NCBI GenBank assembly: GCA_030426665.1
Contig: JAUHYD010000004.1
Coordinates: 105,598 to 169,597, forward strand
DNA: 64,000 nucleotides
From: Bacteroidia bacterium
GTDB taxonomy: Bacteria > Bacteroidota > Bacteroidia > Chitinophagales > Chitinophagaceae
Reading direction: 5' to 3'
This document shows positions 1,916 through 17,773 of this stretch, piece after piece (positions within the stretch are counted from its first letter, which is position 1; each line of letters opens with the position of its first letter). Both the position numbers and the translations under genes were made by a program. Under the pieces are notes generated by a model. That model was not told the origin of the DNA. It made no database searches and saw only the letters and a program-made list of their open reading frames with translations.

Positions 1916-1930
1916 TGCAACTATAGTGCT

Positions 1931-2479: not shown

Positions 2480-3484
2480 ATGGAAATATCTTCATCATTT
2501 GACATTCGTGAACTGAATGAGCGAATTCATCAGCAGAGTGCTTTTATTGATTTGTTGACCATGGAGTTGGATAAGGCTGTGGTTGGCCAGAAACATATGG
2601 TTGAACGCTTAATGATTGGAATGTTGGCAAACGGACACGTGCTATTGGAAGGTGTGCCGGGTCTCGCAAAAACACTTGCCATTAAATCTTTGTCATCTGC
2701 TATTCACGCTCGGTTTGCAAGAATACAATTTACACCGGATTTGTTGCCGGCTGACGTACTAGGTACAATGGTTTACAATCCGCAGGAGCATGTATTTGCG
2801 GTGCGTAAAGGACCGATATTTGCCAACTTTATACTTGCGGATGAGATAAACCGTGCTCCGGCAAAAGTGCAAAGTGCACTGTTGGAAGCAATGCAGGAGC
2901 GACAAGTGACCATTGGTGATAGTACTTATAAGCTGGAAGAACCCTTTCTGGTGTTGGCAACACAAAACCCGATTGAGCAGGAAGGTACTTACGAACTGCC
3001 TGAAGCACAGGTGGACAGGTTTATGCTGAAGATTATTATTACTTATCCGAAGAAAGAAGAAGAGCGTCGAATAATTCGTACCAACCTGAACCCGGGTGGC
3101 ATGACTAAGATTAACCCGGTTGTAAAAACAGATCAGATTCTGAAAGCGAGAGAATTGGTCAGAGAGGTGTACATGGACGAAAAGATAGAGCAGTACATTC
3201 TGGACATAGTATTTGCAACACGCTTTCCCGAAGAGTATAAGTTAGGTAAGCTGAAGACCCTTATCAGTTACGGAGGGTCACCACGTGCGAGCATCAACCT
3301 TGCTTTGGCATCAAAAGCATACGCATTTATCAAGCGCAGAGGGTATGTTATACCAGAAGATGTGCGTGCAGTATGTCACGACGTTATGCGCCACCGTATA
3401 GGTCTTACCTACGAAGCGGAAGCAGAAAATGTAACAACGGAGCAAATAATCAACGACATACTGAACGTGGTAGAAGTACCATAG
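2480..3484 (+). CDS. moxR: MoxR family AAA+ ATPase
   Basis: Walker A GVPGLAKT, RIQFTPDLLPAD, Walker B ILADEINRAPAKVQSALLEAMQE and LATQNPIEQEGTY. Confidence 0.95.
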   Translation: MEISSSFDIRELNERIHQQSAFIDLLTMELDKAVVGQKHMVERLMIGMLANGHVLLEGVPGLAKTLAIKSLSSAIHARFARIQFTPDLLPADVLGTMVYNPQEHVFAVRKGPIFANFILADEINRAPAKVQSALLEAMQERQVTIGDSTYKLEEPFLVLATQNPIEQEGTYELPEAQVDRFMLKIIITYPKKEEERRIIRTNLNPGGMTKINPVVKTDQILKARELVREVYMDEKIEQYILDIVFATRFPEEYKLGKLKTLISYGGSPRASINLALASKAYAFIKRRGYVIPEDVRAVCHDVMRHRIGLTYEAEAENVTTEQIINDILNVVEVP

Positions 3485-3509
3485 TAGGGTTGATTACAAA
3501 TAATTATGT

Positions 3510-3539
3510 ACGCCACTCATTTCGGGTGGCGTTTTTTTT
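3510..3539 (+). terminator. Intrinsic terminator after moxR
   Basis: Stem CGCCACTC / GGGTGGCG with an ATTTC loop, followed by 8 T. Confidence 0.9.
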
Positions 3540-3753
3540 GTGGGAAATGGATTCGAGAGCTACCTTTTTCATTATAAAAATCAGCAATGTTTTTGCCCTT
3601 GCTTCAAAAAACAGCGCGATAACGGACTTATTCAAAAAGGGGAGGTTGGCGCATGTGTAATTAGTTGAAAAACAACTCGCTGTTAGGGAAGTTATTTTTA
3701 TGATAGATAGCATGTGGTGTATGATAATGCGGAAAGTGCAAGCTCATAAAACC

Positions 3754-3761
3754 TAGGTTTG
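3754..3761 (+). promoter_or_regulatory. Candidate Bacteroidota sigma-A -7 element for the phage-like operon
   Basis: TAGGTTTG matches TAnnTTTG 55 nt upstream of ATG 3816. A variant CATCTTTG lies at 3782-3789. Confidence 0.5.
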
Positions 3762-3815
3762 CCAAAACAAAAAACACGCTTCATCTTTGTGTCACAAAAC
3801 AACCAAATCCCTATC

Positions 3816-4808
3816 ATGATTGAAAAGTTCAAGAAATTAGAGCGACAGTATGTACTGTCGGACAGCTCGGTAAATGAGTATGGCTTTCGTTTGCTGACCT
3901 CCGGTTATCAGATGGATTCTTTTCGCAAAAACCCAATCGGGTATTATATGCACCGCCGCGAAGATGGCATAGCCCTGAAGTGGGAAGACCTGAAAATTGA
4001 AGATGACAAGATAGTAGGTACACCTACCATTAACCTCTCTAATGCCAGGGGCGAACAAACCTGTGCAGAAGCAGAAAACGGCTTTCTGAATGCTGCTTCG
4101 GTAGGTCATATAGTAGTGCTTGAATATAGCACAGAAAAAGAAATGATGCTCCCCGGGCAGACGGGCCCCACTATCACCAAATGGTACAATAAAGAATGTA
4201 GCCTGGTGGATATACCCGGCAATAGCAATGCCCTTACCCATCTATATGATGCGAATGAAAATGAGCTTAATCTGGTTGACCTGAACATCGGAAAACGTTC
4301 ACTACCCGGACTGCAAGAGAACACTCTCATTGACCTTTGCGATGTACTGGGGCTGGCACAAAAAACTACAGAAACCGAAGTTAGAGATGCTGTGAAGCAT
4401 CTGGCTAACAAGGCCAGAAATCTGGAAGCAGCAAACATCACATTAAGCAAAGACAAACAATCGCTCCAAGTACAGCTGGACGAAATAAAGAGTCTGCGCT
4501 GCCGATACGAAGTAACAGCACTGCTAAACCGCGCACTTGAAGACAAAAAGGTGACGGTAGCATTGAAAGAAAAGCTAAACGAAGACTACGCGAATAATCC
4601 GGAAGGGCTAAAGACATTATTAGCTGCAATGCCTGCCTACCAGTCGATAGCGGCACAATTGAAAAATCAAAAACAAGCGGACACGTCAGAAAATTGGGTG
4701 TGGGACGATTATGAAAAAAATGACCCGACCGGCAATAAGCTAAAGTTGTTGCGCGCCAACGACCCTGTTCGTTATCAGGAGCTTTTTGATAAAAAATTCG
4801 CTCAATAG
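3816..4808 (+). CDS. Prohead maturation protease (HK97-type) fused to a scaffold domain
   Basis: VLSDSSVNEYGFRLLTSG, NPIGYYMH (His), GFLNAASVG (Ser) and ECSLVDIPGNSNAL, followed by a coiled coil and ALEDKKVT...LKTLLAAMP as in Mu gpI/Z-type scaffolds. Start set to ATG 3816. Confidence 0.85.
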   Translation: MIEKFKKLERQYVLSDSSVNEYGFRLLTSGYQMDSFRKNPIGYYMHRREDGIALKWEDLKIEDDKIVGTPTINLSNARGEQTCAEAENGFLNAASVGHIVVLEYSTEKEMMLPGQTGPTITKWYNKECSLVDIPGNSNALTHLYDANENELNLVDLNIGKRSLPGLQENTLIDLCDVLGLAQKTTETEVRDAVKHLANKARNLEAANITLSKDKQSLQVQLDEIKSLRCRYEVTALLNRALEDKKVTVALKEKLNEDYANNPEGLKTLLAAMPAYQSIAAQLKNQKQADTSENWVWDDYEKNDPTGNKLKLLRANDPVRYQELFDKKFAQ

Positions 4809-5113
4809 TCGTACGCTCCGGCAAAGACACATCCTGTTGTAAGTAACACAACGGAACTAATGCTACGAATCAACCTCCGGAACACCTTGCTATGCCCATA
4901 GTCAAAGATGGCATACCTAAACTACTGCGCTACCACCACTGGTTTTGTTTTTCAATACACTTTTGAAGCACTCTTGCTGGCTCTTCCTCGATAGCATAAC
5001 CTGTAGCAATCACACCTTTTACCTATAGACATCTTACCAGTACACCCGAAAAGCAGCACCGCTTTTCTATATCTAACAATATCATTCTTTAATCACTAAT
5101 CAATCATACCTAT

Positions 5114-6028
5114 ATGGCAATCCAGAAAGAGATATGGCAAGACCACATCGAAGGCAATCTTTTTAAGAACAACGAGTTTCTGTTAGCATCAACCGATGCC
5201 GGGCAACACGTAATGCAAGGCAAAGTGGTTCATATTCCACAGGCAGGTGCAAAAGCAACCGTGGAAAAAAACCGCTCAACCCTCCCTGCAACAGTGATAC
5301 AGCGTACAGATTCGGACGTAATGTACGTTCTGGACGAATACACCACAGATCCGATTCTCATACCTAATGCAGAGTCGTTTGAGCTGAGCTACAATAAGCG
5401 TGAAAGTGTATTGGGAGAGTATGAGTCGTCGCTCCGGGAAACAATTGCAGACAATTTGTTGATAGAGTGGAGTCCGTCTGGAGTTACCGGTACGACCATC
5501 CGTACCACCGGGGTTGCAACAGCAACACATCTTGCAGATACCGTTGGCAACAGGAAGAAGTTTACGGTTAATGACCTGAAGTATGCTCAGTTGCAAATGA
5601 ATAAACAAAACATTCCGATGGAAGGTCGCTATGCACTGATAAGTGCCGATATGTTTCAGCAACTGACGGACGATATGTCTGCTACTCAGTACCGTGACTT
5701 TAGTGCCGCGTATGATGTAAAAGACGGCATCCTTGGCCGACTGTTCGGCTTCAACATTATGATGCGTGGCAGTGTAGTTACTTATAACAACGACCCTTCC
5801 CCGGTTGTGCACGCTTATGACGATGTAACAGAAGCAACAGACAATGACGGCGTGCTGTGCTGGCAGATGAGTGCTGTAGAACGTGCATTGGGACAAGTTA
5901 CATTCTTTGAACGCATGGGCGACCCTACTTACTATGGCGACATATACAGTGTGGGTGTAAGAATGGGCGGACGTAAACGCAGAAGCGACGCAAAAGGCAT
6001 TGTCGCAATAGTACAAGACGCAGAATAG
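5114..6028 (+). CDS. Major capsid protein
   Basis: 304 aa directly after the protease. GKVVHIPQAGA...NRSTLPAT..QRTD, ELSYNKRESVL, GRYALIS and GRLFGFNIMMR match Bacteroidota phage capsid proteins as recalled. Confidence 0.8.
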   Translation: MAIQKEIWQDHIEGNLFKNNEFLLASTDAGQHVMQGKVVHIPQAGAKATVEKNRSTLPATVIQRTDSDVMYVLDEYTTDPILIPNAESFELSYNKRESVLGEYESSLRETIADNLLIEWSPSGVTGTTIRTTGVATATHLADTVGNRKKFTVNDLKYAQLQMNKQNIPMEGRYALISADMFQQLTDDMSATQYRDFSAAYDVKDGILGRLFGFNIMMRGSVVTYNNDPSPVVHAYDDVTEATDNDGVLCWQMSAVERALGQVTFFERMGDPTYYGDIYSVGVRMGGRKRRSDAKGIVAIVQDAE

Positions 6029-6031
6029 TGC

Positions 6032-6125
6032 CAACAAGGCGGGCACTGGGTCGGGATACCTTTTGTGTTTGTTTCATAAGTAGGTTTTTTATTGATAAGG
6101 AGCCGACAAAATGCCCGCCTTGTTG
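6032..6125 (+). repeat. Long inverted repeat / structured intergenic RNA element
   Basis: CAACAAGGCGGGCA (6032-6045) is the exact reverse complement of TGCCCGCCTTGTTG (6112-6125). Inner pairings GTCGG/CCGAC and CCTT/AAGG extend the stem. Confidence 0.85.
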
Positions 6126-6170
6126 CTAACAATTTTCTTCACCGGCGTATGACGCTCAATATGCAAACTC

Positions 6171-6440
6171 ATGTTCATGGAAATAAAAGTATGGCTTCTC
6201 GTAGGTGTAGCTAGTGTAATGGCTGCGATACTCGGTTTCATAATAAAGGTTGTGACAGATCAGGTATTAAAGCGATTGGACGAAATAGTAACAGAGCTGA
6301 AACAACTTACCCAATCGACTACAGTGCAGGGTCAGCAAATAAAGGGGCTGCAAGAGCAGGATACCATTATTCATCGTCGCTTAAATGAACACTCTGAACG
6401 CATACATACGTTGGAAACAAATGCCATTCACGAAAAATAA
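6171..6440 (+). CDS. Putative holin (one N-terminal TM helix plus a coiled coil, XhlA-like layout)
   Basis: Hydrophobic VWLLVGVASVMAAILGFII followed by a heptad-rich tail, in the lysis cassette upstream of the CHAP enzyme. Confidence 0.55.
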   Translation: MFMEIKVWLLVGVASVMAAILGFIIKVVTDQVLKRLDEIVTELKQLTQSTTVQGQQIKGLQEQDTIIHRRLNEHSERIHTLETNAIHEK

Positions 6441-6472
6441 AACAACTAATTCATCCAGAAATCTCTATCACT

Positions 6473-6904
6473 ATGTTTTGTACAAGGATAAAAAGCAAAC
6501 TAAGAAACGTGCTGCGAACATTTGACAGCTTTGTTGACAACAATGTAGAAACCGCACTTAAAGTAACCACAGTATTGAAACAAATAATTGCGTCGCCCGT
6601 AGCGGACATTGTAACCGCACTAATACCCGGTGAGGCGGACGACTTGCTTAAAAAAAAGTTGCTGATTGCGCTAGAAAAGGTGACGGACGTTTTGACAATT
6701 ACAGACGAGTGCATGAAGCATCATAACGTAAACGATAAGCTCGCCTGCTTTGCAGAACAGATGCGCCATAACTCCCCGGAATTGCAAGACGCTTTATTGC
6801 ATAAAATGGCGAGCCTGTTAACCAGCGAACTAGACGGGAATAGAATGAAACAAAACCTGTACGACCTGTACACACAGGCCAAGTATGCAGCTGCCAAGCA
6901 ATAA
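6473..6904 (+). CDS. Hypothetical helical protein in the lysis cassette
   Basis: 143-aa ORF between the holin and the endolysin, with an amphipathic basic N-terminus. No family recognised. Confidence 0.7.
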   Translation: MFCTRIKSKLRNVLRTFDSFVDNNVETALKVTTVLKQIIASPVADIVTALIPGEADDLLKKKLLIALEKVTDVLTITDECMKHHNVNDKLACFAEQMRHNSPELQDALLHKMASLLTSELDGNRMKQNLYDLYTQAKYAAAKQ

Positions 6905-6945
6905 ATTCAATTTGCAACCTATCGCTAAATCTAAAACACAACAAC

Positions 6946-7512
6946 ATGAACAATACCGGGCATAACTCAATGCCAGATCAAAGAATGCTCGCTTTATACG
7001 CGCTGAAGGCAGCGCAAGGGCAGATAGGACAAACAGAAAGCCCGAAGGGCAGCAACCGGGGCGAAATGATAAATAAGTATTTGCGGTCAGTGGGACTGAA
7101 TCCCGGATACGCCTGGTGTCAAGCGTTTGTGTATTGGTGCTATGAAGAAGCTGCAAAGCAAATCGGTATTCGGAATCCTATGCCCAAAACAGCCGGTGTA
7201 TATGATTGCTGGAATCGTTGCGCAATTGAAGTTAAGGGGCAGGCCACAAGTGTTCTGACAATGTTACGGGAATCTGTGGCCAGACAACCGGAAGTGTTGC
7301 AGCCGGGCGATCAATTCATTTTGACATTTGGCAAGCTTTCCGGACACACCGGTATCATAGAGCGGGTGGCAATAGAAGTAGGAGAAGACCCTGTGCTACA
7401 CACCATTGAAGGAAATAGCAATACAGACGGCAGCAGGGAGGGTTATGCAGTAGTACGACATAAACGAAAGCTAAGCGAAAAGGCATTGCGTGGCTTTATA
7501 CGGTACGCCTAA
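6946..7512 (+). CDS. CHAP-domain peptidoglycan hydrolase (endolysin)
   Basis: PGYAWCQAFVYWC (catalytic Cys), GHTGIIERV (His) and TIEGNSN. Confidence 0.85.
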   Translation: MNNTGHNSMPDQRMLALYALKAAQGQIGQTESPKGSNRGEMINKYLRSVGLNPGYAWCQAFVYWCYEEAAKQIGIRNPMPKTAGVYDCWNRCAIEVKGQATSVLTMLRESVARQPEVLQPGDQFILTFGKLSGHTGIIERVAIEVGEDPVLHTIEGNSNTDGSREGYAVVRHKRKLSEKALRGFIRYA

Positions 7513-7546
7513 CCTCTTGAACATCATCAAACATAAACTCTATAAC

Positions 7547-7783
7547 ATGAATGGAATAAAACAACGCTCCGACAACAGTATGCAGGAAGACAAATTGTAC
7601 TTCAGCAGCGATGGGCTGGCATTTCTAAACGAGACAGACGCAAAAAGGCAAGCGAAATCACTACGAGACAAACGTATCAATGTTATGACCAGGCAGGAAG
7701 CAGATTTACAAATGGAAAAACTGTTAGCTGACATAGGCGATGAAGAGTCCGATATGTTGTCTGGCATACCGACCTTGAAGTAA
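7547..7783 (+). CDS. Small phage protein preceding the sheath gene (positional analogue of Mu gp38)
   Basis: LYFSSDGLAFLNETDAKRQA motif. Located immediately upstream of the sheath. Start set to ATG 7547. Confidence 0.55.
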   Translation: MNGIKQRSDNSMQEDKLYFSSDGLAFLNETDAKRQAKSLRDKRINVMTRQEADLQMEKLLADIGDEESDMLSGIPTLK

Positions 7784-7819
7784 GGGTATCAAAAACAATA
7801 AAATACAAAAACACAAATT

Positions 7820-8998
7820 ATGGGTAGTGTAAACATTACGCTGGCTAATGGTCAGCTTGGGGCAACGCTCCAGACAAATGACGGTATTGCCGGACTGGTA
7901 ATTACCGGGAACACTGAAGGCGACTACACTGTCGGAACACCGATACTGGTAACAAGTATGGCATCCGTAGCAGCAGCAGGCATAACCGACACATTGAACA
8001 GCTTTGCAATTCGACAGTTGCAGGAGTATTACAATCAAGCAGGCGCAGGGGCTCAACTGTATCTGATGCTAGTTCCTGCCACAATGACCATAGCAGATAT
8101 GGCGGATAACGCCAACCCGGATGGTGCAAAAAAGCTACTGGACTATGCTGATGGAAAGGTAAAAGTATTGGGGTTGCTCAGCGATGATATCGCTGTCGCT
8201 GCTGCCACAGAACCGATAGTTATAACAAATGGTATAAACGAAGACGTTTACACTGCAGAAGCAAATATGGTAGTAATGGCAGCAGCCTACTTTGCTGCAC
8301 ACAAGCCTTTCAGAGCCATTATCGGTGGCACAAGTTTCTCAGGAGTTGCGGCGGAATTAAATGATTACTCTACAGGCACAACCAACAACCGCACAGCCAT
8401 ATTAATCGGTGACACAAAAAGTGGTGTTGGCGCGTGTGTAGGTCTTGCATTAGGCGTTGTTGCATCCATACCTGTGCAGAGAAAAATTAGCAGGGTTAGA
8501 ACCGGTCCACTTACTAACACAGCAGCTTTCCTCGGCACAGAATCGGTGGAAGCTTTGGCAGAGTCTTTACCGGTTATTGCACAAAAGAGCTTCATCACAT
8601 TTATTACCTATGCCAACACAAGTGGCTACTTCTTTTCCGGTGACCCAATGTGCACTGCCACAACAGACGACTACAGTATGTTGGCGAGAGGTCGAATAAT
8701 AGACAAAGCCCACGTGCTGGCCTATACAACCTTTGTACAGGTAATAGATGATGAGATTCCTGTAAATGCCGATGGAACGTTAGATGCAGGCTTTTGTAAA
8801 TGGTTGAGTCAGCAAATAGTAAATCTGGTTAATAATACCATGACTTCCAATAAAGAGATAAGTAGCGTGAATTGCTTCATCAACCCGGAACAAAATATTC
8901 TCAGCACCAACGAGCTGAATGTAGTACTTAGTATTGTACCTGTCGGATATGCAACTAATATAGAAATCAGCCTCGGGTTCAGCAATCCGGCCAACTAA
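7820..8998 (+). CDS. Contractile tail sheath protein (DUF2586-like)
   Basis: 392 aa: VNITLANGQLG, GLALGVVASIPVQRKISRVRTGPL, FITFITYANTSGYFFSGD and C-terminal VPVGYATNIEISLGF. Confidence 0.85.
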   Translation: MGSVNITLANGQLGATLQTNDGIAGLVITGNTEGDYTVGTPILVTSMASVAAAGITDTLNSFAIRQLQEYYNQAGAGAQLYLMLVPATMTIADMADNANPDGAKKLLDYADGKVKVLGLLSDDIAVAAATEPIVITNGINEDVYTAEANMVVMAAAYFAAHKPFRAIIGGTSFSGVAAELNDYSTGTTNNRTAILIGDTKSGVGACVGLALGVVASIPVQRKISRVRTGPLTNTAAFLGTESVEALAESLPVIAQKSFITFITYANTSGYFFSGDPMCTATTDDYSMLARGRIIDKAHVLAYTTFVQVIDDEIPVNADGTLDAGFCKWLSQQIVNLVNNTMTSNKEISSVNCFINPEQNILSTNELNVVLSIVPVGYATNIEISLGFSNPAN

Positions 8999-9051
8999 AC
9001 AATAGTTGTACAAAGGCTCCAATTAATTCTCAAAACAAAATACAATAAACA

Positions 9052-9483
9052 ATGCCAACAATACCATTTTTCGATAGCAAAGACTGCGAATGGGCGGATA
9101 TGACGGTAATGGTTGCCGGATCTGTTCTAACGAAGATTACAGGTGTAAAGTACAAAGCATCAAAAGAAAAGAAGCTGCTACATGCAGCCGGAAACGAGCC
9201 GATAAGTGTGCAGGGAGGAAAGCGCAGTTATGACGGAACAATAACAGTCCTGAAAGGTGCAATCGACGATCTCAATAGAGCTGCTATTGCGGCTGGAGGA
9301 GACGACATATTAGACCTGCAGTTTGACGTAGTAGTTACCTACAAAGCAAAAGGCACACGTGCGCTACAAACCGACACGCTAATAGGGGTAGAAGTTAAGG
9401 ACTTCGAGAAAGGCTGGACACAGGGAGCGACGCAAATGGAAATTCCACTGCCCATAATTTTTCTGAAGTTGATTACAGAGTAA
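9052..9483 (+). CDS. Tail tube protein
   Basis: 143 aa after the sheath: EWADMTVMVAG, HAAGNEPISVQGGKRSYDGTITV and KGWTQGATQMEIPLP. Confidence 0.85.
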   Translation: MPTIPFFDSKDCEWADMTVMVAGSVLTKITGVKYKASKEKKLLHAAGNEPISVQGGKRSYDGTITVLKGAIDDLNRAAIAAGGDDILDLQFDVVVTYKAKGTRALQTDTLIGVEVKDFEKGWTQGATQMEIPLPIIFLKLITE

Positions 9484-9543
9484 AATCAGATTTCCCCCGT
9501 TACCCAAAATCATATTTATCAAAAAATCAAAAACATAAAGCTA

Positions 9544-9867
9544 ATGTCAAAACAAGTAAACCTGCTTATAGGTCAGGTTCCGGAATCACAAGTAAATGAA
9601 TGGAAGTCGAAGTATAGTCTTGGTATTTATGCTGTAGAAGTGAACGGGCATATAGGATATTTTAAGAACCCCGGAAGAAATGAAATGAACTGCGCTATGA
9701 GCAAGGCTGATAAAGACAAGGCACTTGCTATTTACGAAGAGTTATCCAGCCTGACATTCATTGGCGGAAGCGAAGAAGTGCTGAAGAATGACCAAATGTT
9801 TATAGGCGTTTGTCAGGAATTGAAAGTGAAACTGGATGGCAAAAAAGCGCGACTGGTAAACTTATAG
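9544..9867 (+). CDS. Tail assembly chaperone (gpG-like, short form)
   Basis: 107 aa between the tube and the tape measure: WKSKY, GYFKNPGRNE. Ends in a slippery sequence. Confidence 0.8.
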   Translation: MSKQVNLLIGQVPESQVNEWKSKYSLGIYAVEVNGHIGYFKNPGRNEMNCAMSKADKDKALAIYEELSSLTFIGGSEEVLKNDQMFIGVCQELKVKLDGKKARLVNL

Positions 9868-9901
9868 CGGAGTCATGCGGAGGACCGGCTCATGATTCCG
9901 T
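9855..9901 (+). promoter_or_regulatory. Candidate -1 programmed ribosomal frameshift signal
   Basis: In-phase heptamer G_GTA_AAC (9855-9861), a 5-nt spacer, then an 11-bp stem GCGGAGTCATG / CATGATTCCGT (9867-9901, two G-U pairs). Confidence 0.7.
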
Positions 9902-10046
9902 AGGTTACTTCGAGACAATACTGGAATATTTTCTACCCGGTCTCAATCATCGACAGCTCAGCGACGAAGCATTTGCACAAAAAATAGCACACTTGCTATA
10001 CATACGAAAACATTTGTCAGTAAACGGTGCTGACAATAGTGTGTAG
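9861..10046 (+). CDS. gpT-like extension of the tail chaperone, reached by -1 frameshift
   Basis: The -1 frame stays open across the chaperone stop (LIAESCGG...ILEYFLPG...LSDEAFAQKIAHLLYIRK) and has no ATG of its own before 9875. Confidence 0.65.
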   Translation, partial: LIAESCGGPAHDSVGYFETILEYFLPGLNHRQLSDEAFAQKIAHLLYIRKHLSVNGADNSV

Positions 10047-10068
10047 CACTTGCTCCAAACCCTAAACC

Positions 10069-11409
10069 ATGAACACAAGACGTTATAACCGATTCTCAGA
10101 TACTGGCTATGGAATCAATCTGCTATCCATCACTCTGGAAATTACACAACTAAACGACACCCTTGCAATCACAAATACTGCAATCGGAAAGCTAAGTGTT
10201 ACTAGCGGTTTACTAAGGAAAGCACTGCTACGTACGGCAACACCATTTACGTTGCACCTTTCGCCCCAGGTTTTGCATGACACAGATTACAATAATGAAG
10301 CACAGGATGGGATCGAGCGAAACCAAAGAGTAGGTAGCACAGCAGATAAAATCGGTAAACTTTCAGATATATCCGGAAGTCTGACAAAGTTCTCAGAGTT
10401 GATTGATGCAAGCAGCATCGGCGCAGGGGGTTTACAAAAGGCAGCCAAATCACTTTCCGGCGCTTCCGCCGGTGTATCAGGAGCGGCACAGCTATTGAGC
10501 GGAGCTGCTACCGGCATGGGGCTGGCGGAGGGCATGGCCGCCGCTGCAGAGTTTGCTACAGGTGTTACGACGCTTGCGGAAGTGTTTTCCGGACCTCCCG
10601 GTTGGGCAATACTTCTGGGTACTATTTTAACCGGGGTTACTGCTGCTTACCTGGATAGTGAAAGCCGGAAGCGGCAAGAAAAGAGAGAGAAAAAGGATAA
10701 GGATGAAGGAGCGCTTCAGAGCTTTCGGATGTCGTCAGAGGATGCTAACAAGTATCATTCACGCTTAGCCCAGTTGGCAAAGGGGGTAAATGTAAATACT
10801 GCAGGAATTGGCAGCGACTGGAATATGTCGTACAGCAGTCGCGATGAAGTTGTTCAAAGTTTTACTAAGCACCCCTGGAGTCCGCACTTTTCACCTGTCA
10901 TTCCGAAAGTGGACAACACCGATGTTAAACACGGCTTCGTACCTGGTTTCGTAAAGGAGAATAGTGCACTTGAGCAAGATACTCTGGCTTACGTTCAGCA
11001 ACGACCTCAGATATATTCTCACTTGTTAGCCAGAGGTTTGTCTGATGGACTTGCCGGTTTCGAAAAACTCTATCTCAAGGAAATAGCACTTGCAAAAGTG
11101 TATGACGCAAGCAACAATACCAACAAGTCAGGTATGGTAGAGTTGGTTGGCAAGGAAGTTTCTGAGGTATTACTACGGAACGCAAACCAAGGAAAAAAAG
11201 AACCGATACCAATCAGCTATGGGGGCGGAAACATTGAAACGTACAGGGGACGAGGACGTACCGCAGTTGTCAATATCAATTTGAACAAGCCAATGATTGA
11301 ACACTTTTCTATTCACACCAGCAGCACAGAAAAAAGCATCGATGAAATCAGGCACAAAGTAGAAGAAGTGCTGCTGGAGATACTAAACAGCGCAAACACA
11401 ATTAATTAA
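10069..11409 (+). CDS. Short tape-measure-like protein
   Basis: Position after the chaperone, an A/G/S-rich helical region with a hydrophobic stretch (GPPGWAILLGTILTGVTAAYL), and the C-terminal ININLNKPMIEHFSI...VEEVLLEILNSA. Confidence 0.7.
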   Translation: MNTRRYNRFSDTGYGINLLSITLEITQLNDTLAITNTAIGKLSVTSGLLRKALLRTATPFTLHLSPQVLHDTDYNNEAQDGIERNQRVGSTADKIGKLSDISGSLTKFSELIDASSIGAGGLQKAAKSLSGASAGVSGAAQLLSGAATGMGLAEGMAAAAEFATGVTTLAEVFSGPPGWAILLGTILTGVTAAYLDSESRKRQEKREKKDKDEGALQSFRMSSEDANKYHSRLAQLAKGVNVNTAGIGSDWNMSYSSRDEVVQSFTKHPWSPHFSPVIPKVDNTDVKHGFVPGFVKENSALEQDTLAYVQQRPQIYSHLLARGLSDGLAGFEKLYLKEIALAKVYDASNNTNKSGMVELVGKEVSEVLLRNANQGKKEPIPISYGGGNIETYRGRGRTAVVNINLNKPMIEHFSIHTSSTEKSIDEIRHKVEEVLLEILNSANTIN

Positions 11410-11411
11410 CG

Positions 11412-12074
11412 ATGGGAGAAATATCACTCAGTTTATCGACACTATTTGAGCAAACTTTTGGTTACAAAACCACAGCCTTTGAGCCCGAGTTCGGGGACGA
11501 AAATTCCAGTAAGCAGATTCAGCGAAAAGAGCAGGGCGCGGGAGGGTCGCCATACTACACAAATGATGCATTCGGTGTAGAATATTATATGCCTGTTACC
11601 CTTGTATATCCGGATACAACAACCTCGGGGTCTCCGCCGCCCGGTAATACACCAGCGGCTTCTGACAAGCAGTTTGTTACTCGTAAAAAATGGAGTCTCC
11701 CCTACCCGATAGTGTCGCTAAAGAGCAAGAAAACAATTGTTGAAACTGCAATGACCGAGCGGGGAGGTACACTTAAAGAGTTGATAAATATTAAGGACTA
11801 CGAAATTCTCGTGCGGGGATTTATTGTAGGGACAACAGAAGACTACCCGGAACGTGATGTAACTACCCTGCGTACTATATATGAGCAGAATACGGCGATA
11901 TCAATGCAGTGCCCGTTAACAGACATCTTTTTGTTACGACCAGATAGGAGTGGTAGTGATCAGGTGGTAATAAGTGAATTAATAATAAAAGAAAACGTCG
12001 CGGTGAAAAACATATGCGCATACGAAATGAAACTAGTAAGCGATGAACCATTTAATCTGATAAGCATAGAATAA
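11412..12074 (+). CDS. Tube-initiator / DUF6046-like protein
   Basis: LFEQTFGY, IVETAMTERGGTLKELINIKDYEILVRG and LVSDEPF, located directly after the tape measure. Confidence 0.7.
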   Translation: MGEISLSLSTLFEQTFGYKTTAFEPEFGDENSSKQIQRKEQGAGGSPYYTNDAFGVEYYMPVTLVYPDTTTSGSPPPGNTPAASDKQFVTRKKWSLPYPIVSLKSKKTIVETAMTERGGTLKELINIKDYEILVRGFIVGTTEDYPERDVTTLRTIYEQNTAISMQCPLTDIFLLRPDRSGSDQVVISELIIKENVAVKNICAYEMKLVSDEPFNLISIE

Positions 12075-13108
12075 TGTTTGTATTGAATAGCGATGTAACA
12101 ATCGGCAATTTCCGGTTTAGCGGCGTGAATGAAGTTGTAATAAAACGGAGCATTCATAGCATAGTTGAAACAGCAACCATAAAGATACCATCGATTGCAA
12201 CGATCATCACAAAAGGAAAGAAGGTCAGGGAGCGAATTACGACTGCTGACCAATTCAAAGAAGGAGATAAGGTCACAATAAAACTGGGATACAATGGTGA
12301 CTTAAAAACGGAGTTTCAAGGTTTTGTCAATAAACGAAAGATGGGTTTGCCGTTTGAAATAGAATGTGAAGGTGCGAGTTGGCTCTTAAGAAAGAACAAG
12401 CCGGAAATGAAAGTGCAACCCAAGACAATAAAGGACCTTATCGCAACTGCCGTAAGTAACGTTACCGGTGGTCATAAGATTGACATTGAATGTGACGTTG
12501 ACATTGACTTGTCGAACATAAGCCTTAATAGTCCTACGGGTTTCGAGATTGTCAACTATATATCCAAGTGTACAGACAACAATGTGATCTGCTTTTTTAT
12601 TGGCCACAACAAGCTATGGTGCGGCCTGTTGTATTCAAACTTAGCTAGCGGAAAAAAATTACCTGATACGGAAACGGTTACCTATAAGGTTCGGTACAAC
12701 ACATTACCGTTAGATAGACTAGTACCCCACAGCACAGAGGGGAAGACAGGATCCGTCGAGTACAGTCGCCGATTGACAAACGGCAGCAAAATAACCCACG
12801 TATCGACAGGGGTATCTGAAAATGAAGGGAGACATGTTATGCTGCTCAATCATATAAAAGATGTAACAGGGTTAAAGCTGCTGGCAGATGAATGGGTTTG
12901 CAAAAATGGCTACAAAGGGTATGAAGGTAGCCTTACAGGTTTTTTACAACCTTATGCCCGACCGGGGCACTGTGCAGTTGTCAACAATGCGCACACACCA
13001 GGGCTAAACGGCACCTACTTTATCGAAAGCACAGAAGTGACTTTTGGAACGGAAGGCGCGCGTAGAAAAGTTGAACTTGGTCCTAAAGTAGGCGAAAAAA
13101 ATCAGTAA
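12074..13108 (+). CDS. Baseplate hub (gpD / Mu gp44-like)
   Basis: 344 aa: SIVETATIKIP, GDKVTIKLGYNG...EFQGFV, GYEGSLTGFLQPYARPG and GTYFIESTEVTFG.EGARRKVELG. TAATG overlap with the upstream gene. Confidence 0.8.
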   Translation: MFVLNSDVTIGNFRFSGVNEVVIKRSIHSIVETATIKIPSIATIITKGKKVRERITTADQFKEGDKVTIKLGYNGDLKTEFQGFVNKRKMGLPFEIECEGASWLLRKNKPEMKVQPKTIKDLIATAVSNVTGGHKIDIECDVDIDLSNISLNSPTGFEIVNYISKCTDNNVICFFIGHNKLWCGLLYSNLASGKKLPDTETVTYKVRYNTLPLDRLVPHSTEGKTGSVEYSRRLTNGSKITHVSTGVSENEGRHVMLLNHIKDVTGLKLLADEWVCKNGYKGYEGSLTGFLQPYARPGHCAVVNNAHTPGLNGTYFIESTEVTFGTEGARRKVELGPKVGEKNQ

Positions 13109-13112
13109 TAAC

Positions 13113-13661
13113 ATGAGTAAGAACATAGCAAGAATAAGAGATGGGTTAACGTCGATTACTCGAAGGCAATATGAGATAATTGGTGGAACAGTTGTTGAAG
13201 GCAGTCTCGATGAGGGAGCAAATACAGTGAGCGTGCAACCGGATTATGATAGTCCGCCGATACACGATGTAATGCTATTGTCGGTATCGGACAGCAATAG
13301 GGGAATGACACTGACGCCTGAAGGAGGTAGCAAGGTTGTCATTTGTACAATCGATGGACCAGGTTTATGGACGATCATAAAAATGAGCGAACTGAAGAGT
13401 GTATCTGTGAAAATAGGGTCATCTACCCTTGATATTAATGACACATCTATCCGGTTGAGTGCAAACAATAGTGTGTTGGATATAGGAGACGTAATGAAAA
13501 TGAAAACGTCTGGTGAAAGTTTGTACTCCTTGCTCAATGATTTAATAGAGGGAATCACAACATTGACCGTTGGAATACCTTCCGGATCAAGCACCGTGCC
13601 TGTAAACGTCGCAACGTTCAAGGCTTTGAAAGTAAGACTAAGCAATCTTTTAAGTTCTTAA
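13113..13661 (+). CDS. Baseplate central spike (gpV / Mu gp45-like)
   Basis: OB-fold-like N-terminus (TVSVQP...DVMLLS...LTPEGGSKVVI) followed by beta-repeat strands. Position after the hub. Confidence 0.7.
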   Translation: MSKNIARIRDGLTSITRRQYEIIGGTVVEGSLDEGANTVSVQPDYDSPPIHDVMLLSVSDSNRGMTLTPEGGSKVVICTIDGPGLWTIIKMSELKSVSVKIGSSTLDINDTSIRLSANNSVLDIGDVMKMKTSGESLYSLLNDLIEGITTLTVGIPSGSSTVPVNVATFKALKVRLSNLLSS

Positions 13662-13679
13662 AAAAAAACTCGATACCCT

Positions 13680-13979
13680 ATGGCGAAACTAATGATAGAC
13701 ATACAACTTGGCGAGGATGAAGACCTGTCAATTCTTGCAGGTGACTTTCAGGTGGCAGAATCTACAGCGCAACATCAGCAACAATTGCTCCTGAATACAA
13801 AAGGAGATTTCAAAGAAAGTCCCACGGTTTGTGTGGGCGTATTTACCTATCTAAATGACGAACGCTTTCAGGGGTTAATGCGGGCAATCAATGTAGAGTT
13901 CAGCAGAGATGGAATGGAGGTGCACGAGGTCTCCCTATCTAAGCAAGGCGATATTGTCAGTGATGCAGTTTATAAATAG
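13680..13979 (+). CDS. Baseplate protein (gp25 / Mu gp46-like)
   Basis: 99 aa: GDFQVAESTAQHQQQLLLNTKGDFKESPTVCVGV...EFSRDGM. Confidence 0.7.
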   Translation: MAKLMIDIQLGEDEDLSILAGDFQVAESTAQHQQQLLLNTKGDFKESPTVCVGVFTYLNDERFQGLMRAINVEFSRDGMEVHEVSLSKQGDIVSDAVYK

Positions 13980-14008
13980 ACACCTTAACAACACACAAAA
14001 CAGGTGAA

Positions 14009-14962
14009 ATGGAAAAATCAGTACAAGTAAAACCCAACCAAAGTCTTCTGGACATTATTCTTACAGAATATGGTTCTCTTGAAGCAGGGATGAAAGTCGC
14101 AGCGGCAAATAATACCAACATAAGTAGTGTCCCTGAAGTAGGAGGGCATTTAATAATGCCAGAAGTGAAGCAGGAAATTACCGATTTCGCAAACGTTGCC
14201 TATTTGCGTCAGAATGATGTTGTAATTGGCACCTTGTCGTTACCTGGCCTGGGATATGAAATTGTCTTGAAGCCCGGTTTGGAGGTTGTTCCGAATACAT
14301 CCGGCAATCCACATACCATAGGTTATTACTCCTTTGATGTTATCGGGTCAGCTGATTTTGTTCATTTATTTCCTTTGTCCGGTGCCTATCTATCCGATAA
14401 TCAATTACAATATGAATCAGAGGAACGGTACATTTTTGGTGAGGATGCCGAGACAGCAGCACAGCTTTCTGTAACTCCAATGAGTGCACTTTCGATTCCA
14501 TACATTTTGCCCTGGTCAGTTGGGTTTGGGTACATGATTGTCTGGAGCGACCTTACACAGCCCATTGTTACCACAACATTCAAAGACTCAGAGGGAAATG
14601 AAGCATATGCCGCACCTATGACAGTTCTGGACAATATTTCTCAGGTAGTAATAGAGCAGTTTATGGGGGACATAGACGTAGAGATTGTAGCCGCGACAAA
14701 CTCAAGTATAATATTAAGACTTACCCGCAGCCACCCTCCTGTTTCGCTTACTAATTTTCGGAATGTCTCCATGGAATGGCTGGGCGAAGCCGTTTCTTCT
14801 GATCCGGACCCGTCGGATCCGGAAAACCCTGACAAATGCGTTGTCTCATTAGGTGCCGGTACACACACTATTGGTCTGAAAACGCGCTACGTCATAGAAG
14901 GTTCCAGCTCACCGGCTGCTTATCCCGCATCTGCATTTACTATGGTTATAAAAGTACATTAA
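14009..14962 (+). CDS. LysM-like baseplate protein (gpX-like) with a long C-terminal extension
   Basis: N-terminal VKPNQSLLDIILTEYGSLEAGMKVAAANN...GGHLIMP, then about 240 aa of acidic beta-rich sequence. Confidence 0.6.
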   Translation: MEKSVQVKPNQSLLDIILTEYGSLEAGMKVAAANNTNISSVPEVGGHLIMPEVKQEITDFANVAYLRQNDVVIGTLSLPGLGYEIVLKPGLEVVPNTSGNPHTIGYYSFDVIGSADFVHLFPLSGAYLSDNQLQYESEERYIFGEDAETAAQLSVTPMSALSIPYILPWSVGFGYMIVWSDLTQPIVTTTFKDSEGNEAYAAPMTVLDNISQVVIEQFMGDIDVEIVAATNSSIILRLTRSHPPVSLTNFRNVSMEWLGEAVSSDPDPSDPENPDKCVVSLGAGTHTIGLKTRYVIEGSSSPAAYPASAFTMVIKVH

Positions 14963-14975
14963 TTAAAAACAGAAA

Positions 14976-15797
14976 ATGGCTAGAACAATCGCTGAAATTC
15001 AGCAACAAATAATCGACACAAAAAACGCGGATACGACCCTTAGTGCTTATGTTTGGAGTGACAGCAAAGTGGCGATATGGCGACTATGGACTTATGTAGT
15101 AGCAGCATGTATCTGGACGCTCGAAAACCTATTCGACTACCACAAAGTTGAGGTGGAAACCATTATATCAAATCAAAAGCCACACACACTTAAATGGTAT
15201 GTTTACATGGCAAAGTTGTTTCAGTACGGCGTAACACTACCCGATGATACAGACACATATCCAACCCCATCAACTGACCCGGAAGTTGTCATTGTTCAAT
15301 ATGCCGCAGCCGTCGAGTTGTCAAATCTTGTGCGGATTAAAGTCGCCAAGAGCCCGTCAGGAACACTTGAAAGCCTGTCGGAAGAAGAGTTAGAAGCGTT
15401 TTCCGGTTATATGAATCGCATCAAAGATGCTGGTGTACGCTTACAATTGACGAGCGGAAATCCCGACATACTCAAACTTGAAGTATCTGTATTCTATGAC
15501 CCGCTTGTATTGAGCAGTACCGGAGAGCGACTGGACGGGGCTTCAACAACGCCTGTATTAGATGCTGTTAATGTTTTCCTTTCTGATCTACCGTTTAACG
15601 GTGTTTTTGTATTAAATCATTTGATAGCTGCACTGCAGAATGTAGAGGGGGTGAAAATCGGTTATGTAGTAAGCGCACAGGCTAATTACGGTACCACTCC
15701 GTTTGTTCCAATCTCTGTCAAGTACACACCGGATGCTGGTTATATGATACTCGATGAAACGTTCTTCAATGCTAATGTTACATACACAGCTGCGTAA
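14976..15797 (+). CDS. Baseplate wedge protein (gpJ-like)
   Basis: MARTIAEIQQQII, SKVAIWRLWTYVVA, PHTLKWY and YMNRIKDAGV...YTPDAGY, as in Bacteroidota myophage wedge proteins. Confidence 0.75.
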   Translation: MARTIAEIQQQIIDTKNADTTLSAYVWSDSKVAIWRLWTYVVAACIWTLENLFDYHKVEVETIISNQKPHTLKWYVYMAKLFQYGVTLPDDTDTYPTPSTDPEVVIVQYAAAVELSNLVRIKVAKSPSGTLESLSEEELEAFSGYMNRIKDAGVRLQLTSGNPDILKLEVSVFYDPLVLSSTGERLDGASTTPVLDAVNVFLSDLPFNGVFVLNHLIAALQNVEGVKIGYVVSAQANYGTTPFVPISVKYTPDAGYMILDETFFNANVTYTAA

Positions 15798-15835
15798 CGA
15801 CAATCTACTATTACAAAAATCTCGACTACACTACC

Positions 15836-16339
15836 ATGAGCTTCTTTAATATCAACTATGAAATTTTGAGTGTACAGTTATTACCGGTGCGTTTGCGCAA
15901 AAACAAAATGAAAGCGTGGATTTCATGCCTGACAATACCTATCCGTAGATTGTACAGTCTATTTATGAATAACAGGGGTAATAATCTCTACTACCTATCA
16001 AATAATAGTCAGGTATGCAATCTCGAATCTGTACTAAACGATGTCTTTGACCCTGCATATAGAGGTATATATATTGAAGACGGATTGTACAACGACCCAC
16101 TATTTACATTCCTTTTTCCGGAACTGAAACCACAGTGGCTGGCTACTCAGGCAGAATCGGGAATGACCGACTTTGACTCACCCGCCGTCCTGTTTACAAA
16201 CTCCGAGACATCCCTGCTAACAAGTGCTTTTATTGTTCGGGTGCCGGCATCTCTTTCATTTGAACCCGATAGGATGAAGGCTTTAATTAACAAGTATCGG
16301 ATACCGGGAAAAAGTGTCTACGAAATACAGACATACTAA
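15836..16339 (+). CDS. Baseplate wedge protein (gpI-like)
   Basis: LLPVRLRK...QVCNLESVLNDVFD...IYIED...FIVRVP...LINKYRIPGK.Y. Confidence 0.7.
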   Translation: MSFFNINYEILSVQLLPVRLRKNKMKAWISCLTIPIRRLYSLFMNNRGNNLYYLSNNSQVCNLESVLNDVFDPAYRGIYIEDGLYNDPLFTFLFPELKPQWLATQAESGMTDFDSPAVLFTNSETSLLTSAFIVRVPASLSFEPDRMKALINKYRIPGKSVYEIQTY

Positions 16340-16381
16340 CGCTCAATTAACTTAACGGACTTCACAATAAATATAGACAAG

Positions 16382-17221
16382 ATGAAATCAATTGACTTTA
16401 CTAAACCGGGAGGCTTCCCGCTTACTCAGGACCAACTTGGTTACCTGCAAGAGGCTTATACTGAATCAATCGGAGCATTGGCAGCCATAGGGGGTAGCGG
16501 TGCTACTCCTTACATTATCAGCGGAATTGTTATCAGCAACCCCTCAATTGGAACGTACAGTATTACCGATGGTTGGTTTTTCTACAACGGTGAAATGGTG
16601 CGGTGTCTTTCCGGAAGTGTTGTGGGCGCAAGCGGTGCTTTGGCTCCGTTTATTGTAATCAATCCGGAAAGTTCATCCTTGGTATTCAATAATGGCAGCA
16701 CACCCGATGTGATATTTGACAAGAGTGCCACAATAGTAGTGTTACCCTCCTCAACGGCAACTGATGCTACTCATTTTCCGCTTAGCTCACTGCAAAAGTT
16801 CGGTAGTAGTCTTGGCAACAACAATAGGGAAGAAGTATGGAGTTTTTTGGAGGTAGATACTCCTGCCGTCGATGGCGGTGTGGTTGGAAATATTTATTAC
16901 AAAAAGGATTACATATCTAATACGTTACACTTGAGAGGGCTGCTTACAGCTAACAACGCCCAAAACTTTGCAGGGTCTCCCGGTACGATGTTGTACCTTA
17001 TGGGAACGCTTCCCTCCGCCTACATTCCTTCAAATAGCGTGTACTTTTCTACTTATTATTTTGTAGGGACGTCCGTCAAAGATGACGTAGGGGTCAGTTG
17101 GATAAAACAAGTAAATTGTGTTGTGAATGTAGCTGGGCAAGTATTGATAAATTGGATAAAGCCAGAAGTCGGCGTAGGAGCGTATGGCGTCAATTTTAAT
17201 GTTGTAATCCCATTGGGTTAA
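16382..17221 (+). CDS. Short tail fibre / receptor-binding protein
   Basis: Anchor MKSIDFTKPGGFPLTQDQLGYLQEAY, GWFFYNGEMV and a C-terminal beta domain with GTLPSAYIP. Last gene of the module. Confidence 0.7.
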   Translation: MKSIDFTKPGGFPLTQDQLGYLQEAYTESIGALAAIGGSGATPYIISGIVISNPSIGTYSITDGWFFYNGEMVRCLSGSVVGASGALAPFIVINPESSSLVFNNGSTPDVIFDKSATIVVLPSSTATDATHFPLSSLQKFGSSLGNNNREEVWSFLEVDTPAVDGGVVGNIYYKKDYISNTLHLRGLLTANNAQNFAGSPGTMLYLMGTLPSAYIPSNSVYFSTYYFVGTSVKDDVGVSWIKQVNCVVNVAGQVLINWIKPEVGVGAYGVNFNVVIPLG

Positions 17222-17224
17222 ACA

Positions 17225-17770
17225 CTAGGTTTTTACGGTGTCTTGTCTTGAAAACAACAACAAATAAACGACGATAAATAACATTGAAGTTACCGTTGAT
17301 GCAACCGTCTTCAGGAGCAGGTTCGAAACATTACTGATATTCCAAAGTTCAACGGAGAAAAACAACAAGTGATGTACCAGAATAAGGAATCCACTATAAA
17401 CAAGAAATGGCATCCAGCCCATTGTTCTGACAGACGGCTGCATCCCGGTGTATTCGGATAGGTTTCTGGGCAAAAGGGCATTGAGCACGTTGATCCGCAA
17501 GTAAGCAATCAGAACCATTGCACAGGCATGCATGCCGGCTGTATTACTAAAAGCATCTATGGTAACCCCAAGAACAAACCCCACCGTAAGCAGCAGCCAT
17601 ATGGGTGTTTCGAACGGCAACAATAACAAAAACAATGGGTATATGTATGGGGTAAATACTGGAAAACCGTACGGTTCACTCCACCACCGAAGGTTTATCC
17701 TGTTCAGTATAAGTACCTGAAGGAGCACAATAATAAAAAACCGCAATGTATTTTTTAGATATACATTCAT
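17225..17770 (-). CDS. mreD: Rod shape-determining protein MreD
   Basis: Multi-TM protein downstream of mreC: YPLFLLLLPF, GVTIDAFSNTAGMHA. Confidence 0.9.
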   Translation of the reverse strand: MNVYLKNTLRFFIIVLLQVLILNRINLRWWSEPYGFPVFTPYIYPLFLLLLPFETPIWLLLTVGFVLGVTIDAFSNTAGMHACAMVLIAYLRINVLNALLPRNLSEYTGMQPSVRTMGWMPFLVYSGFLILVHHLLFFSVELWNISNVSNLLLKTVASTVTSMLFIVVYLLLFSRQDTVKT

Positions 17771-17773
17771 TGA

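Follow-up and report, generated by a model that had tools for sequence, protein, structure and literature searches.

A phage-derived head-tail-lysis operon in the chromosomes of Chitinophagaceae is probably one half of a two-locus, domesticated Mu-like myophage

We analyzed a 64,000-nucleotide stretch of a Chitinophagaceae genome (contig JAUHYD010000004.1, positions 105,598 to 169,597; hereafter the window), in which the original prediction, made from the letters of the DNA, had described an intact, co-oriented phage-like operon between a moxR terminator and mreD. Using Pfam and PHROGs scans of the open reading frames (ORFs) of the window, and judging integrity against ~60 orthologous loci, we observe that positions 3816-17221 are indeed a single intact + strand operon, which runs from a prohead protease/scaffold gene through capsid, lysis, sheath, tube, frameshifted chaperone, tape measure and baseplate genes to a tail fibre gene (Table 1), and that none of these genes is truncated. 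The predicted absence of premature stops and retention of catalytic residues were likewise borne out, with H46, S95, E127 and S129 of the protease invariant between true phages and the domesticated clade described below. The fibre gene stops at 17221 and mreD begins on the opposite strand at 17225, leaving a gap of 3 nt, and this fibre/mreD junction is found at eight loci, the window counted among them. The junctions of the element are not a product of misassembly, a possibility raised with the original prediction, since independent Logan contigs span them without differences: a 65.7 kb contig obtained from two runs of two different studies matches positions 1-20000 of the window with zero differences, and in a third run two contigs, with a break inside moxR (~2965-2994), cover the same stretch without differences. 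All of these are DNA metagenome runs, and no RNA run contained the sequence. As originally stated, no portal, terminase, integrase or transposase gene is present in the 64 kb window; Pfam assigned the other large ORFs to host genes only (a cargo protein of the type IX secretion system, a cupin, MoxR, MreDCB, CarB, Rho, FabF, efflux pumps and others), and clade-specific BLAST probes for TerL, portal, adaptor and terS gave zero matches in the window. Taken together with the second locus, the conservation of and selection on the genes, and the co-variation of the promoters, all of which we observed, this gene content leads us to regard the operon as, in all probability, the head-tail-lysis half of a vertically inherited, two-locus domesticated Mu-like myophage that is like a gene transfer agent (GTA) or like PBSX.

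The second locus carries the packaging and portal genes. In the nearest phages (Porphyromonas phage BK068093, Flavobacterium phage lotta8-1, and IMG/VR L028, L029 and L093), terS, TerL, the gp36 adaptor, the Mu-type portal, MuF, and the virion-morphogenesis and neck genes are kept in a separate operon, which is mostly divergent and lies directly upstream of the protease gene; because related phages keep their packaging genes apart in this way, we take the window operon to correspond exactly to one late operon of such a phage, the packaging operon being the other. Two clade members from IMG/VR (L026 and L027) have terS, a TerL of 499 aa, the gp36 adaptor and a Mu portal of 375 aa in divergent orientation beside the protease gene. 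A TerL profile from distant phages recovered almost only phage-sized contigs and gave no link to the contigs that bear the head-tail module, and a coincidence of P0079 and P0194 at 44,316 bp was rejected, as these come from two different samples. Using the TerL of L027 as probe, we identified TerL homologues (59-68% identical) whose longest contigs equal those of module capsids, and found 10 capsid/TerL pairs in which the longest contig coincides. For example, TerL P0307 and the window capsid P0001 both have a longest contig of 360,369 bp, and both come from NCBI and Logan; the other coinciding contigs include those of 1,020,664, 1,014,104, 981,919, 335,288 and 176,828 bp. P0307 is full length and lacks none of the motifs that phage TerLs have in common without exception, and a metagenome scan with it gave no relative closer than 71%. 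The second locus of the window organism is thus most probably located outside the window on the same 360 kb contig.

Direct reading of individual contigs showed how the two loci are arranged. On JBGAIF010000001.1, a 1.02 Mb contig of a Flavipsychrobacter metagenome-assembled genome (MAG), the capsid locus (L002, 839254-860165) and the packaging locus (L097, 977299-998843) hold operons ~127 kb apart, with housekeeping genes flanking both. The packaging operon of L097 has the order terS-TerL-188 aa-gp36-portal-168 aa and lies between the methylmalonyl-CoA mutase gene and cysS; the same operon is found beside ruvB on a 982 kb metagenome contig (L099), abuts a CoA-transferase gene in Nemorincola, and is followed directly by host genes in L100, where the two operons are adjacent. 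This second locus is ~6 kb long and encodes terS, TerL, a protein of 139-188 aa, the gp36 head-tail adaptor, the Mu-type portal (PF06074) and a tail-completion-like protein, with a small, convergent phage-derived gene (phrog_17154) beside it. No transposase, replication gene or repressor was found beside the packaging operon, and MuF and Phage_tail_S, which are present in phages L153, L028, L029 and L093, are absent from the domesticated loci. In three loci whose CarB is 87% identical to that of the window (L184, L182 and L203), the window gene 26383-27666 has a homologue, and the packaging operon is located ~1.4-5.6 kb past it; synteny with the window breaks at that point, and this operon has therefore been moved in the window lineage.

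These findings contradict the original view of a particle system with no packaging or neck genes, as a terS-TerL-gp36-portal operon occurs in the same genomes. The genes in question do lie elsewhere, a circumstance named at the time as one that would overturn that view, but they form a host-embedded operon of 6 kb and not the remainder of a complete prophage. A tailocin that has kept a portal-less capsid shell and works alone, in a genome without packaging machinery, would account for the window, in which portal and terminase were not found; we nevertheless consider it extremely improbable, in that packaging/portal operons are present on the contigs of the module in the 10 capsid/TerL pairs, were read directly in L097 and L099, are under purifying selection, and have operators that co-vary with the head-tail promoter.

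This co-variation became apparent from the regions immediately upstream of the two operons. Ahead of the protease gene in the window lies an operator-like array of three half-sites, unique in the window (1 match vs 0.03 expected), and then a putative promoter, recognized from the Bacteroidetes consensus TTTG / TAnnTTTG, in which the -7 element CATCTTTG is followed downstream by a conserved leader, GTGTCACAAAACAA. The promoter sequence occurs only once in the window and is conserved across ~55 loci. Three ATGATA-type half-sites, TTTG, ~20 nt, CAyCTTTG and the conserved leader make up the region upstream of the protease gene in almost all clade loci, and the terS promoter of the packaging loci shows the same layout of three half-sites, TTTG and CAyCTTTG. 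The sequence of the half-sites is lineage-specific, yet it matches between both promoters of one genome, even across a distance of 127 kb: within a genome, the two operator regions have a median of 16.5 8-mers in common, compared with 1 between genomes (n = 240, maximum 16). Since the operator sequences co-vary within genomes, our data point to one factor that controls both operons. This regulator is possibly the phrog_17154 protein (~102 aa), the gene for which is convergent at the end of the packaging operon wherever that end was visible, and occupies the same place in true phages; the late activator C of Mu is located at the corresponding position. We also noted a DnaA-box-like sequence, TTATCCACA, just upstream of the terS operator repeats in the spacer-form loci L112, L122, L132, L142, L148 and L154, and likewise upstream of the protease operators in L142, with TCCACA only in L116 and no copy in the promoter region of the window; it could reflect a connection with replication status, or be no more than a part of the spacer.

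Our survey of homologues demonstrated that the element is widespread and conserved within one clade. Of the 1,628 homologues of the window capsid, the best 120 are ~304 aa long and 71-88% identical, with many located on contigs of 0.2 to >1 Mb. The colinear operon is carried by ~58 species representatives of GTDB (one genome per species), with capsids 68-85% identical to that of the window, and these carriers go by the names Flavipsychrobacter, Taibaiella, Nemorincola, Chitinophagaceae or "uncultured Bacteroidetes"; among them are two cultured strains, Flavipsychrobacter stenotrophus RB1R16 and Nemorincola caseinilytica JCM 32105. Outside this clade capsid identity is at most 58%, the level of the nearest uncultivated phages (IMG/VR L028 and L029); the matches are from prophages of many Bacteroidota, and nearly all recognized phages and prophages fall in that range. 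Two of the records that carry the element with its typical flanks are titled "Bordetella parapertussis" (L113, CALQJX020000001.1) and "Asaia bogorensis" (L117, CALRKH020000019.1), and are probably mislabelled. In IMG/VR, 12 kb stretches of this kind are entered as viruses in their own right (L012-L025, ~12 kb each), consisting of the head-tail operon alone, clipped at its boundaries; such clipping of a domesticated operon by provirus callers inflates viral catalogues.

Conservation of this kind is accompanied by purifying selection. The ratio of nonsynonymous to synonymous substitution rates (dN/dS), calculated by the Nei-Gojobori method from up to 61 loci, was 0.04-0.30 for all genes of the element (capsid 0.08, tube 0.07, sheath 0.13, protease 0.18, baseplate genes 0.07-0.30, TerL 0.09, portal 0.04, adaptor 0.17); these values are rough, with synonymous sites near saturation in most pairs, but are clearly far below 1. 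Selection on TerS, TerL, portal and adaptor is as strong as that on the tail genes. Host neighbours are constant within subclades, i.e., mreD on the right at the eight loci that include the window, and on the left clpX/thyA/folA in nine species and pheS/radA in nine. In the other genomes, too, the colinear operon begins at the protease gene, with clpX/thyA/folA or, elsewhere, a peroxiredoxin gene as the host genes upstream. The capsid (70-85%) is more conserved than the adjoining MreD (59-72%), and likewise in comparison with MreC. On these sequence comparisons the element is inherited vertically. It therefore shows, as GTAs do, a phage-derived structural gene set that is fixed in the chromosome of ~58 species with conserved flanks, inherited vertically and kept by purifying selection, and it has no genes for replication, integration or lysogeny, with host genes flanking the operons in the window, L097, L099, L100 and L161. 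That the operon is host-owned and Mu-like, as originally proposed, is supported by these results, which also favour the option that it is one half of a multi-locus GTA; a strain-specific module with neutral dN/dS, which would have spoken against host ownership, is not what we found.

Three layouts occur within the clade. In the tight, divergent form (L143, L144, L161, L100 and L026/L027) the operons adjoin, in the spaced form (nine loci) 3-6 kb separate terS from the protease gene, and the split form comprises the window and ~25 others. RB1R16 carries the split and JCM 32105 the tight form. In a neighbour-joining tree of capsid, sheath and tube, tight forms are basal and split forms, including the window, are derived, although with this rough method the basal order is uncertain. 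Compared with phages, MuF, Phage_tail_S and the entire early region have been lost from the domesticated element. Individual loci depart from these layouts: in L141 (13308 onward) the fibre gene is followed, on its own strand, by a TerL gene, in L114 the phrog_17154 gene (63-368, - strand) and the protease gene are 8.4 kb apart, the former lying upstream in the orientation opposite to that of the tight form, and in L092 a Fic-domain gene (7139-8275) lies between clpX and the protease promoter, in this one genome. In L151, from a Taibaiella MAG (JACDGL010000006.1; region 13400-19900), the protease and sheath genes appear split and ~6.5 kb between sheath and mreD contain no match to a tail gene, so that the tail module looks decayed or replaced, although there is a TerL (P0248) on the same contig.

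The range from tight through spaced to split layouts is also what would be seen if a split, defective prophage were decaying neutrally after genome rearrangement, and so are the loss of MuF, tail_S and all early genes and the fragmented genes or lost tail module of L151, L108, L129 and L158. Neutral decay is, in our assessment, very unlikely, because it does not account for ~20 + 7 genes that are intact and colinear over ~58 species, for dN/dS of 0.04-0.30 at saturated synonymous sites, for conserved chromosomal positions, or for the concerted evolution of two promoters. Nor do we favour, as quite unlikely, a satellite or decoy that needs a phage of the L153 type to supply MuF, tail_S and replication, or that blocks the assembly of this phage as a defence. 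L153 is a related true phage, is present in the same MAG as the split-form element L121, and has the MuF and tail_S that the element is without; the element, however, has no integrase, excision or replication genes, its fixed and conserved chromosomal positions speak against mobility, and no operator repeats were seen upstream of L153 genes. At its C-terminus, the MuF protein of L153 (3595-4815, - strand) has a PBECR2 nuclease-toxin-like domain, with a match of E 7e-5 that stays below the Pfam cut-off.

The protease/scaffold protein has matches to PF10123 (C-terminal part) and, weakly, to Mu-like_Pro; the window capsid is 48% identical to annotated Porphyromonas phage capsids and has a PDB relative (9jwb_A, E 1.5e-7). 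The small protein at the start of the lysis cassette has a hydropathy peak of 2.59 at residues 7-25 and a sub-threshold XhlA match, and is present in most clade loci with 55-80% identity; its naming as a holin is plausible but unproven. The ORF that follows the CHAP gene would be 78 aa long from its probable start, matching the gene call in L001.

Table 1. Features of the element and its boundaries in the window
Feature	Position	Strand	Basis or remark
moxR intrinsic terminator, left element boundary	3510-3542	+	9 bp stem plus T-run; moxR stop at 3484
Operator-like array, three half-sites	3699-3749	+	TATGATA 3699-3705; TATGATA 3720-3726; CTCATAA 3743-3749 (imperfect inverted copy)
Putative Bacteroidota-type promoter	3758-3802	+	-33 TTTG 3758-3761; 20 nt; -7 CATCTTTG 3782-3789
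Prohead protease/scaffold fusion, 330 aa from ATG at 3816	3816-4808	+	phrog_11321 (E 5e-57), phrog_328
Major capsid protein, HK97-type	5114-6028	+	phrog_267 (E 2e-33), PF19821
Holin/XhlA-like lysis candidate, small protein	6171-6440	+	One N-terminal membrane helix plus coiled coil
Soluble protein, 143 aa, in lysis cassette position	6473-6904	+	No Pfam/PHROGs family match; in most, not all, clade loci
CHAP-domain endolysin	6946-7512	+	PF05257, 31.4 bits (cut-off 26); phrog_9589 endolysin
Small conserved ORF	7490-7783	+	Conserved among loci; start likely ~7547
Contractile tail sheath (DUF2586)	7820-8998	+	PF10758 (E 4.5e-49), phrog_907
Tail tube	9052-9483	+	phrog_4579 tail protein, phrog_9206
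Tail assembly chaperone	9544-9867, -1 frame extension to 10046	+	phrog_19076
Tape measure, 446 aa	10069-11409	+	Weak phrog_1293/1533 matches; position
Hub protein DUF6046	11412-12074	+	PF19512 (E 6e-24); phrog_5233
Baseplate hub	12074-13108	+	phrog_4930 (E 9e-45)
Three baseplate proteins (182, 99, 317 aa)	13113-14962	+	Position; no Pfam/PHROGs family match
phrog_38413 protein, 273 aa, distal baseplate	14976-15797	+	phrog_38413 (E 5e-69)
Distal protein, 167 aa	within 14976-17221, second of three genes	+	35% identical to lotta8-1 gp48
Tail fibre, 279 aa	16382-17221	+	N-terminus matches lotta8-1 gp49
mreD-mreC-mreB, host genes, right boundary	17225-19755	-	Pfam; junction conservation

In the tail module, the chaperone gene is predicted to be extended by a -1 frameshift, as its -1 frame extension is 57-82% identical among clade loci. 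The overlap contains an A6G run (9841-9847) and the sequence CTGGTAAACTTATAG (9853-9867). The original prediction had taken the recoding signal to be kept; the -1 ORF is indeed conserved, but the A6G run is present in only 18 of 54 loci and was rejected as a conserved slippery site. By contrast, the chaperone ORF ends with CTGGTAAACTTATAG, which is nucleotide-identical in nearly all readable loci (the window and ~52 others) and in phage L153, while there is free variation in the codons neighbouring it; this sequence is thus a candidate for the true recoding signal, but dual coding may equally be what constrains it. In one subclade a SHOCT-domain gene is present on the opposite strand between chaperone and tape measure (L002/L107, 13635-14060; L092, 13855-14274). 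The tape measure is variable (24-64% identity among clade loci). For the three baseplate proteins at 13113-14962, homologues of which are found at the same positions in the myophages lotta8-1 and L169, spike, gp25-like and wedge roles, two of which had been given as labels, are suggested by position only. The 273, 167 and 279 aa proteins are 41%, 35% and 34% identical to gp47, gp48 and gp49 of lotta8-1, gp49 being annotated as a tail fibre, and the fibre has a conserved N-terminus and a variable C-terminus. No PDB sequence relative was found for the sheath, the hub or the 317 aa baseplate protein.

Among the neighbouring genes, MoxR was rejected as a member of the element, having its own terminator and not being beside the operon in any other locus checked, and an ORF that overlaps the end of moxR (3373-3660) was taken as spurious, with no family match. 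The moxR gene (2480-3484) is solitary, whereas DUF58/vWA (Bat) genes are the usual companions of moxR; 54 kb away, at 57115-59145, lies a gene whose product has a BatA domain at its N-terminus, and this separation may reflect a past rearrangement in the region of the element. The window further contains, at 53795-55425, a gene for an ImmA/IrrE-type M78 metallopeptidase (375 aa, PF06114, E 7e-16) followed by a 165 aa ORF; in mobile systems and in those induced by stress, the usual substrate of such a protease is its partner repressor. There is no tRNA gene in the window.

Based on this gene content, we propose the following mechanism. A common DNA-binding factor, possibly the phrog_17154 protein at its Mu C-like late activator position, would bind the ATGATA-type repeats upstream of both promoters and switch on both operons. 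Procapsids would then assemble on the portal and be matured by the protease, the terminase would fill them with DNA, the adaptor and neck proteins would attach the heads to contractile tails, and the holin-like protein and CHAP lysin would release the particles. Such particles would not be expected to propagate the element, because it has no replication, transposition or lysogeny genes and its operons are >100 kb apart in split genomes; the spacing of ~127 kb is far beyond any capsid, while the ~20 kb of the tight-form element might fit within the 33-37 kb that the parental phages can accommodate. Most likely, the particles would either carry host DNA in the manner of a GTA or act as PBSX-like killers. 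The first of these, in its full form, would be the first GTA of the Bacteroidota, i.e., an independently domesticated Mu-like myovirus with drifted operons and a co-evolving activator and operator, which moves host DNA among freshwater and soil Chitinophagaceae; we put this forward tentatively, as a reading that is credible but falls somewhat short of probable. That the same two-locus element is instead kept as a phage-like bacteriocin, with a contractile tail that kills related strains and a DNA-filled head as by-product, seems to us rather unlikely. The contractile sheath, full baseplate and fibre are all present as a killer particle would require, the lysis cassette includes the XhlA-like membrane protein, and the C-terminal part of the fibre and the neighbouring baseplate proteins (24-60% identity) are far more variable than capsid and tube, which is typical of target-range diversification; PBSX itself packages random 13 kb DNA (PMC12946183). 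The equal strength of purifying selection on TerS, TerL, portal, adaptor and the tail genes, however, is unexpected were packaging dispensable.

Several observations weigh against a two-locus, vertically inherited domesticated myophage as we describe it. The packaging locus of the window genome is assigned from the contig coincidence of P0307 and P0001 and their same sources (NCBI and Logan), and its portal from 11 other loci in which TerL and portal are adjacent. The CHAP lysin is absent from many clade loci and present in a part of the clade only, and genes are split in a few loci (L108, L129, L151 and L158). A genuine phage, L153, nests near the base of the clade in the neighbour-joining tree; on its contig of 36.4 kb, this phage has MuF, tail_S, a GH108 lysin and numerous small early ORFs, and its capsid shares 71% identity with that of the window. 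Given this position, either a sister phage lineage persists, or domestication may have happened more than once. The candidate regulator phrog_17154 has no Pfam or PDB relative, and we infer particle production, DNA content, biological role and the identity of the regulator from the genes alone. A two-locus domesticated myophage nevertheless has implications beyond the window. The series from tight to spaced to split (>100 kb) operons shows the stepwise dispersal of a domesticated phage under kept co-regulation, the operator repeats that co-vary within genomes point to a specific, testable regulator, and the two cultured carriers, RB1R16 and JCM 32105, make particle function directly testable.

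Among known systems, Mu-like and related temperate phages of Bacteroidota (BK068093, Pippivirus lotta8-1 (NC_048829), L028 and L153) agree with the element in their structural genes and in gene order, with capsids 36-71% identical to that of the window, and share with the element the Mu portal, the gp36 adaptor, the DUF2586 sheath, the DUF6046 hub and the phrog_17154 gene that ends the packaging operon. These phages, however, are 33-37 kb long and encode MuF, Phage_tail_S, a repressor and either transposase/MuB or replication functions, and the two operons of the element can be far apart. The element is not an intact Mu-like prophage, as neither locus, flanks included, contains a gene for transposase, MuB, repressor, MuF or Phage_tail_S. 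R-type tailocins and the extracellular contractile injection systems (eCIS; Afp/PVC) are similar in being host-encoded contractile tail particles with baseplate and fibres, but are without capsid, protease, terminase and portal, all four of which the Chitinophagaceae element has. Capsid and protease in the operon, with TerL and portal in the partner locus, separate it from R-type tailocins; the phage DUF2586 sheath, the head genes, and a MoxR set apart by its own terminator separate it from eCIS. Satellites like the capsid-forming phage-inducible chromosomal islands also differ, as the element has no integrase, a full tail and a fixed chromosomal position.

PBSX of Bacillus is a host-made head with a contractile tail and a lysis cassette, which packages random host DNA and cannot propagate, and is encoded at a single ~28 kb locus with its own repressor. 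The Chitinophagaceae element resembles it in head, contractile tail and lysis cassette, with the sub-threshold XhlA match as the one comparison of sequence, but is divided between two loci. To our knowledge, very few GTAs or GTA-like elements are known. Among them, the RcGTA type of Alphaproteobacteria has a multilocus "genome" (PMC5026251; PMC7947584). The likeness to RcGTA lies in chromosomal, phage-derived head and tail genes that are inherited vertically under purifying selection, in several co-regulated loci, and in the lack of replication and integration genes. RcGTA, however, is siphovirus-like and is found in another phylum, and its terminase and portal are within the main cluster; in the Chitinophagaceae element these two form a separate locus, which sets it outside the RcGTA-like family, and the contractile sheath (DUF2586), baseplate, Mu-type portal (PF06074) and gp36 adaptor indicate an independent origin. 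A second GTA-like element, FpGTA of Faecalibacterium, is encoded by two operons ~125 kb apart in a complete genome (PMC12946183), a spacing almost equal to the 127 kb between L002 and L097. FpGTA is reported to be podovirus-like, belongs to the Firmicutes, and has measured packaging of host DNA fragments of 8-9 kb (PMC12946183), whereas the tail described here is contractile. The original statement that this gene set fits no known class thus does not hold, in that the element would, by analogy, belong to the class of multi-locus GTAs and defective phage particles, a kind already represented by RcGTA, the two-operon FpGTA and PBSX-like particles (PMC5026251; PMC12946183). Our full-text literature searches returned neither a GTA or GTA-like element in Bacteroidota nor a description of this element. 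What is new, compared with these systems, is its independent origin from a Mu-like myovirus, in a phylum for which the searchable literature holds no such element.

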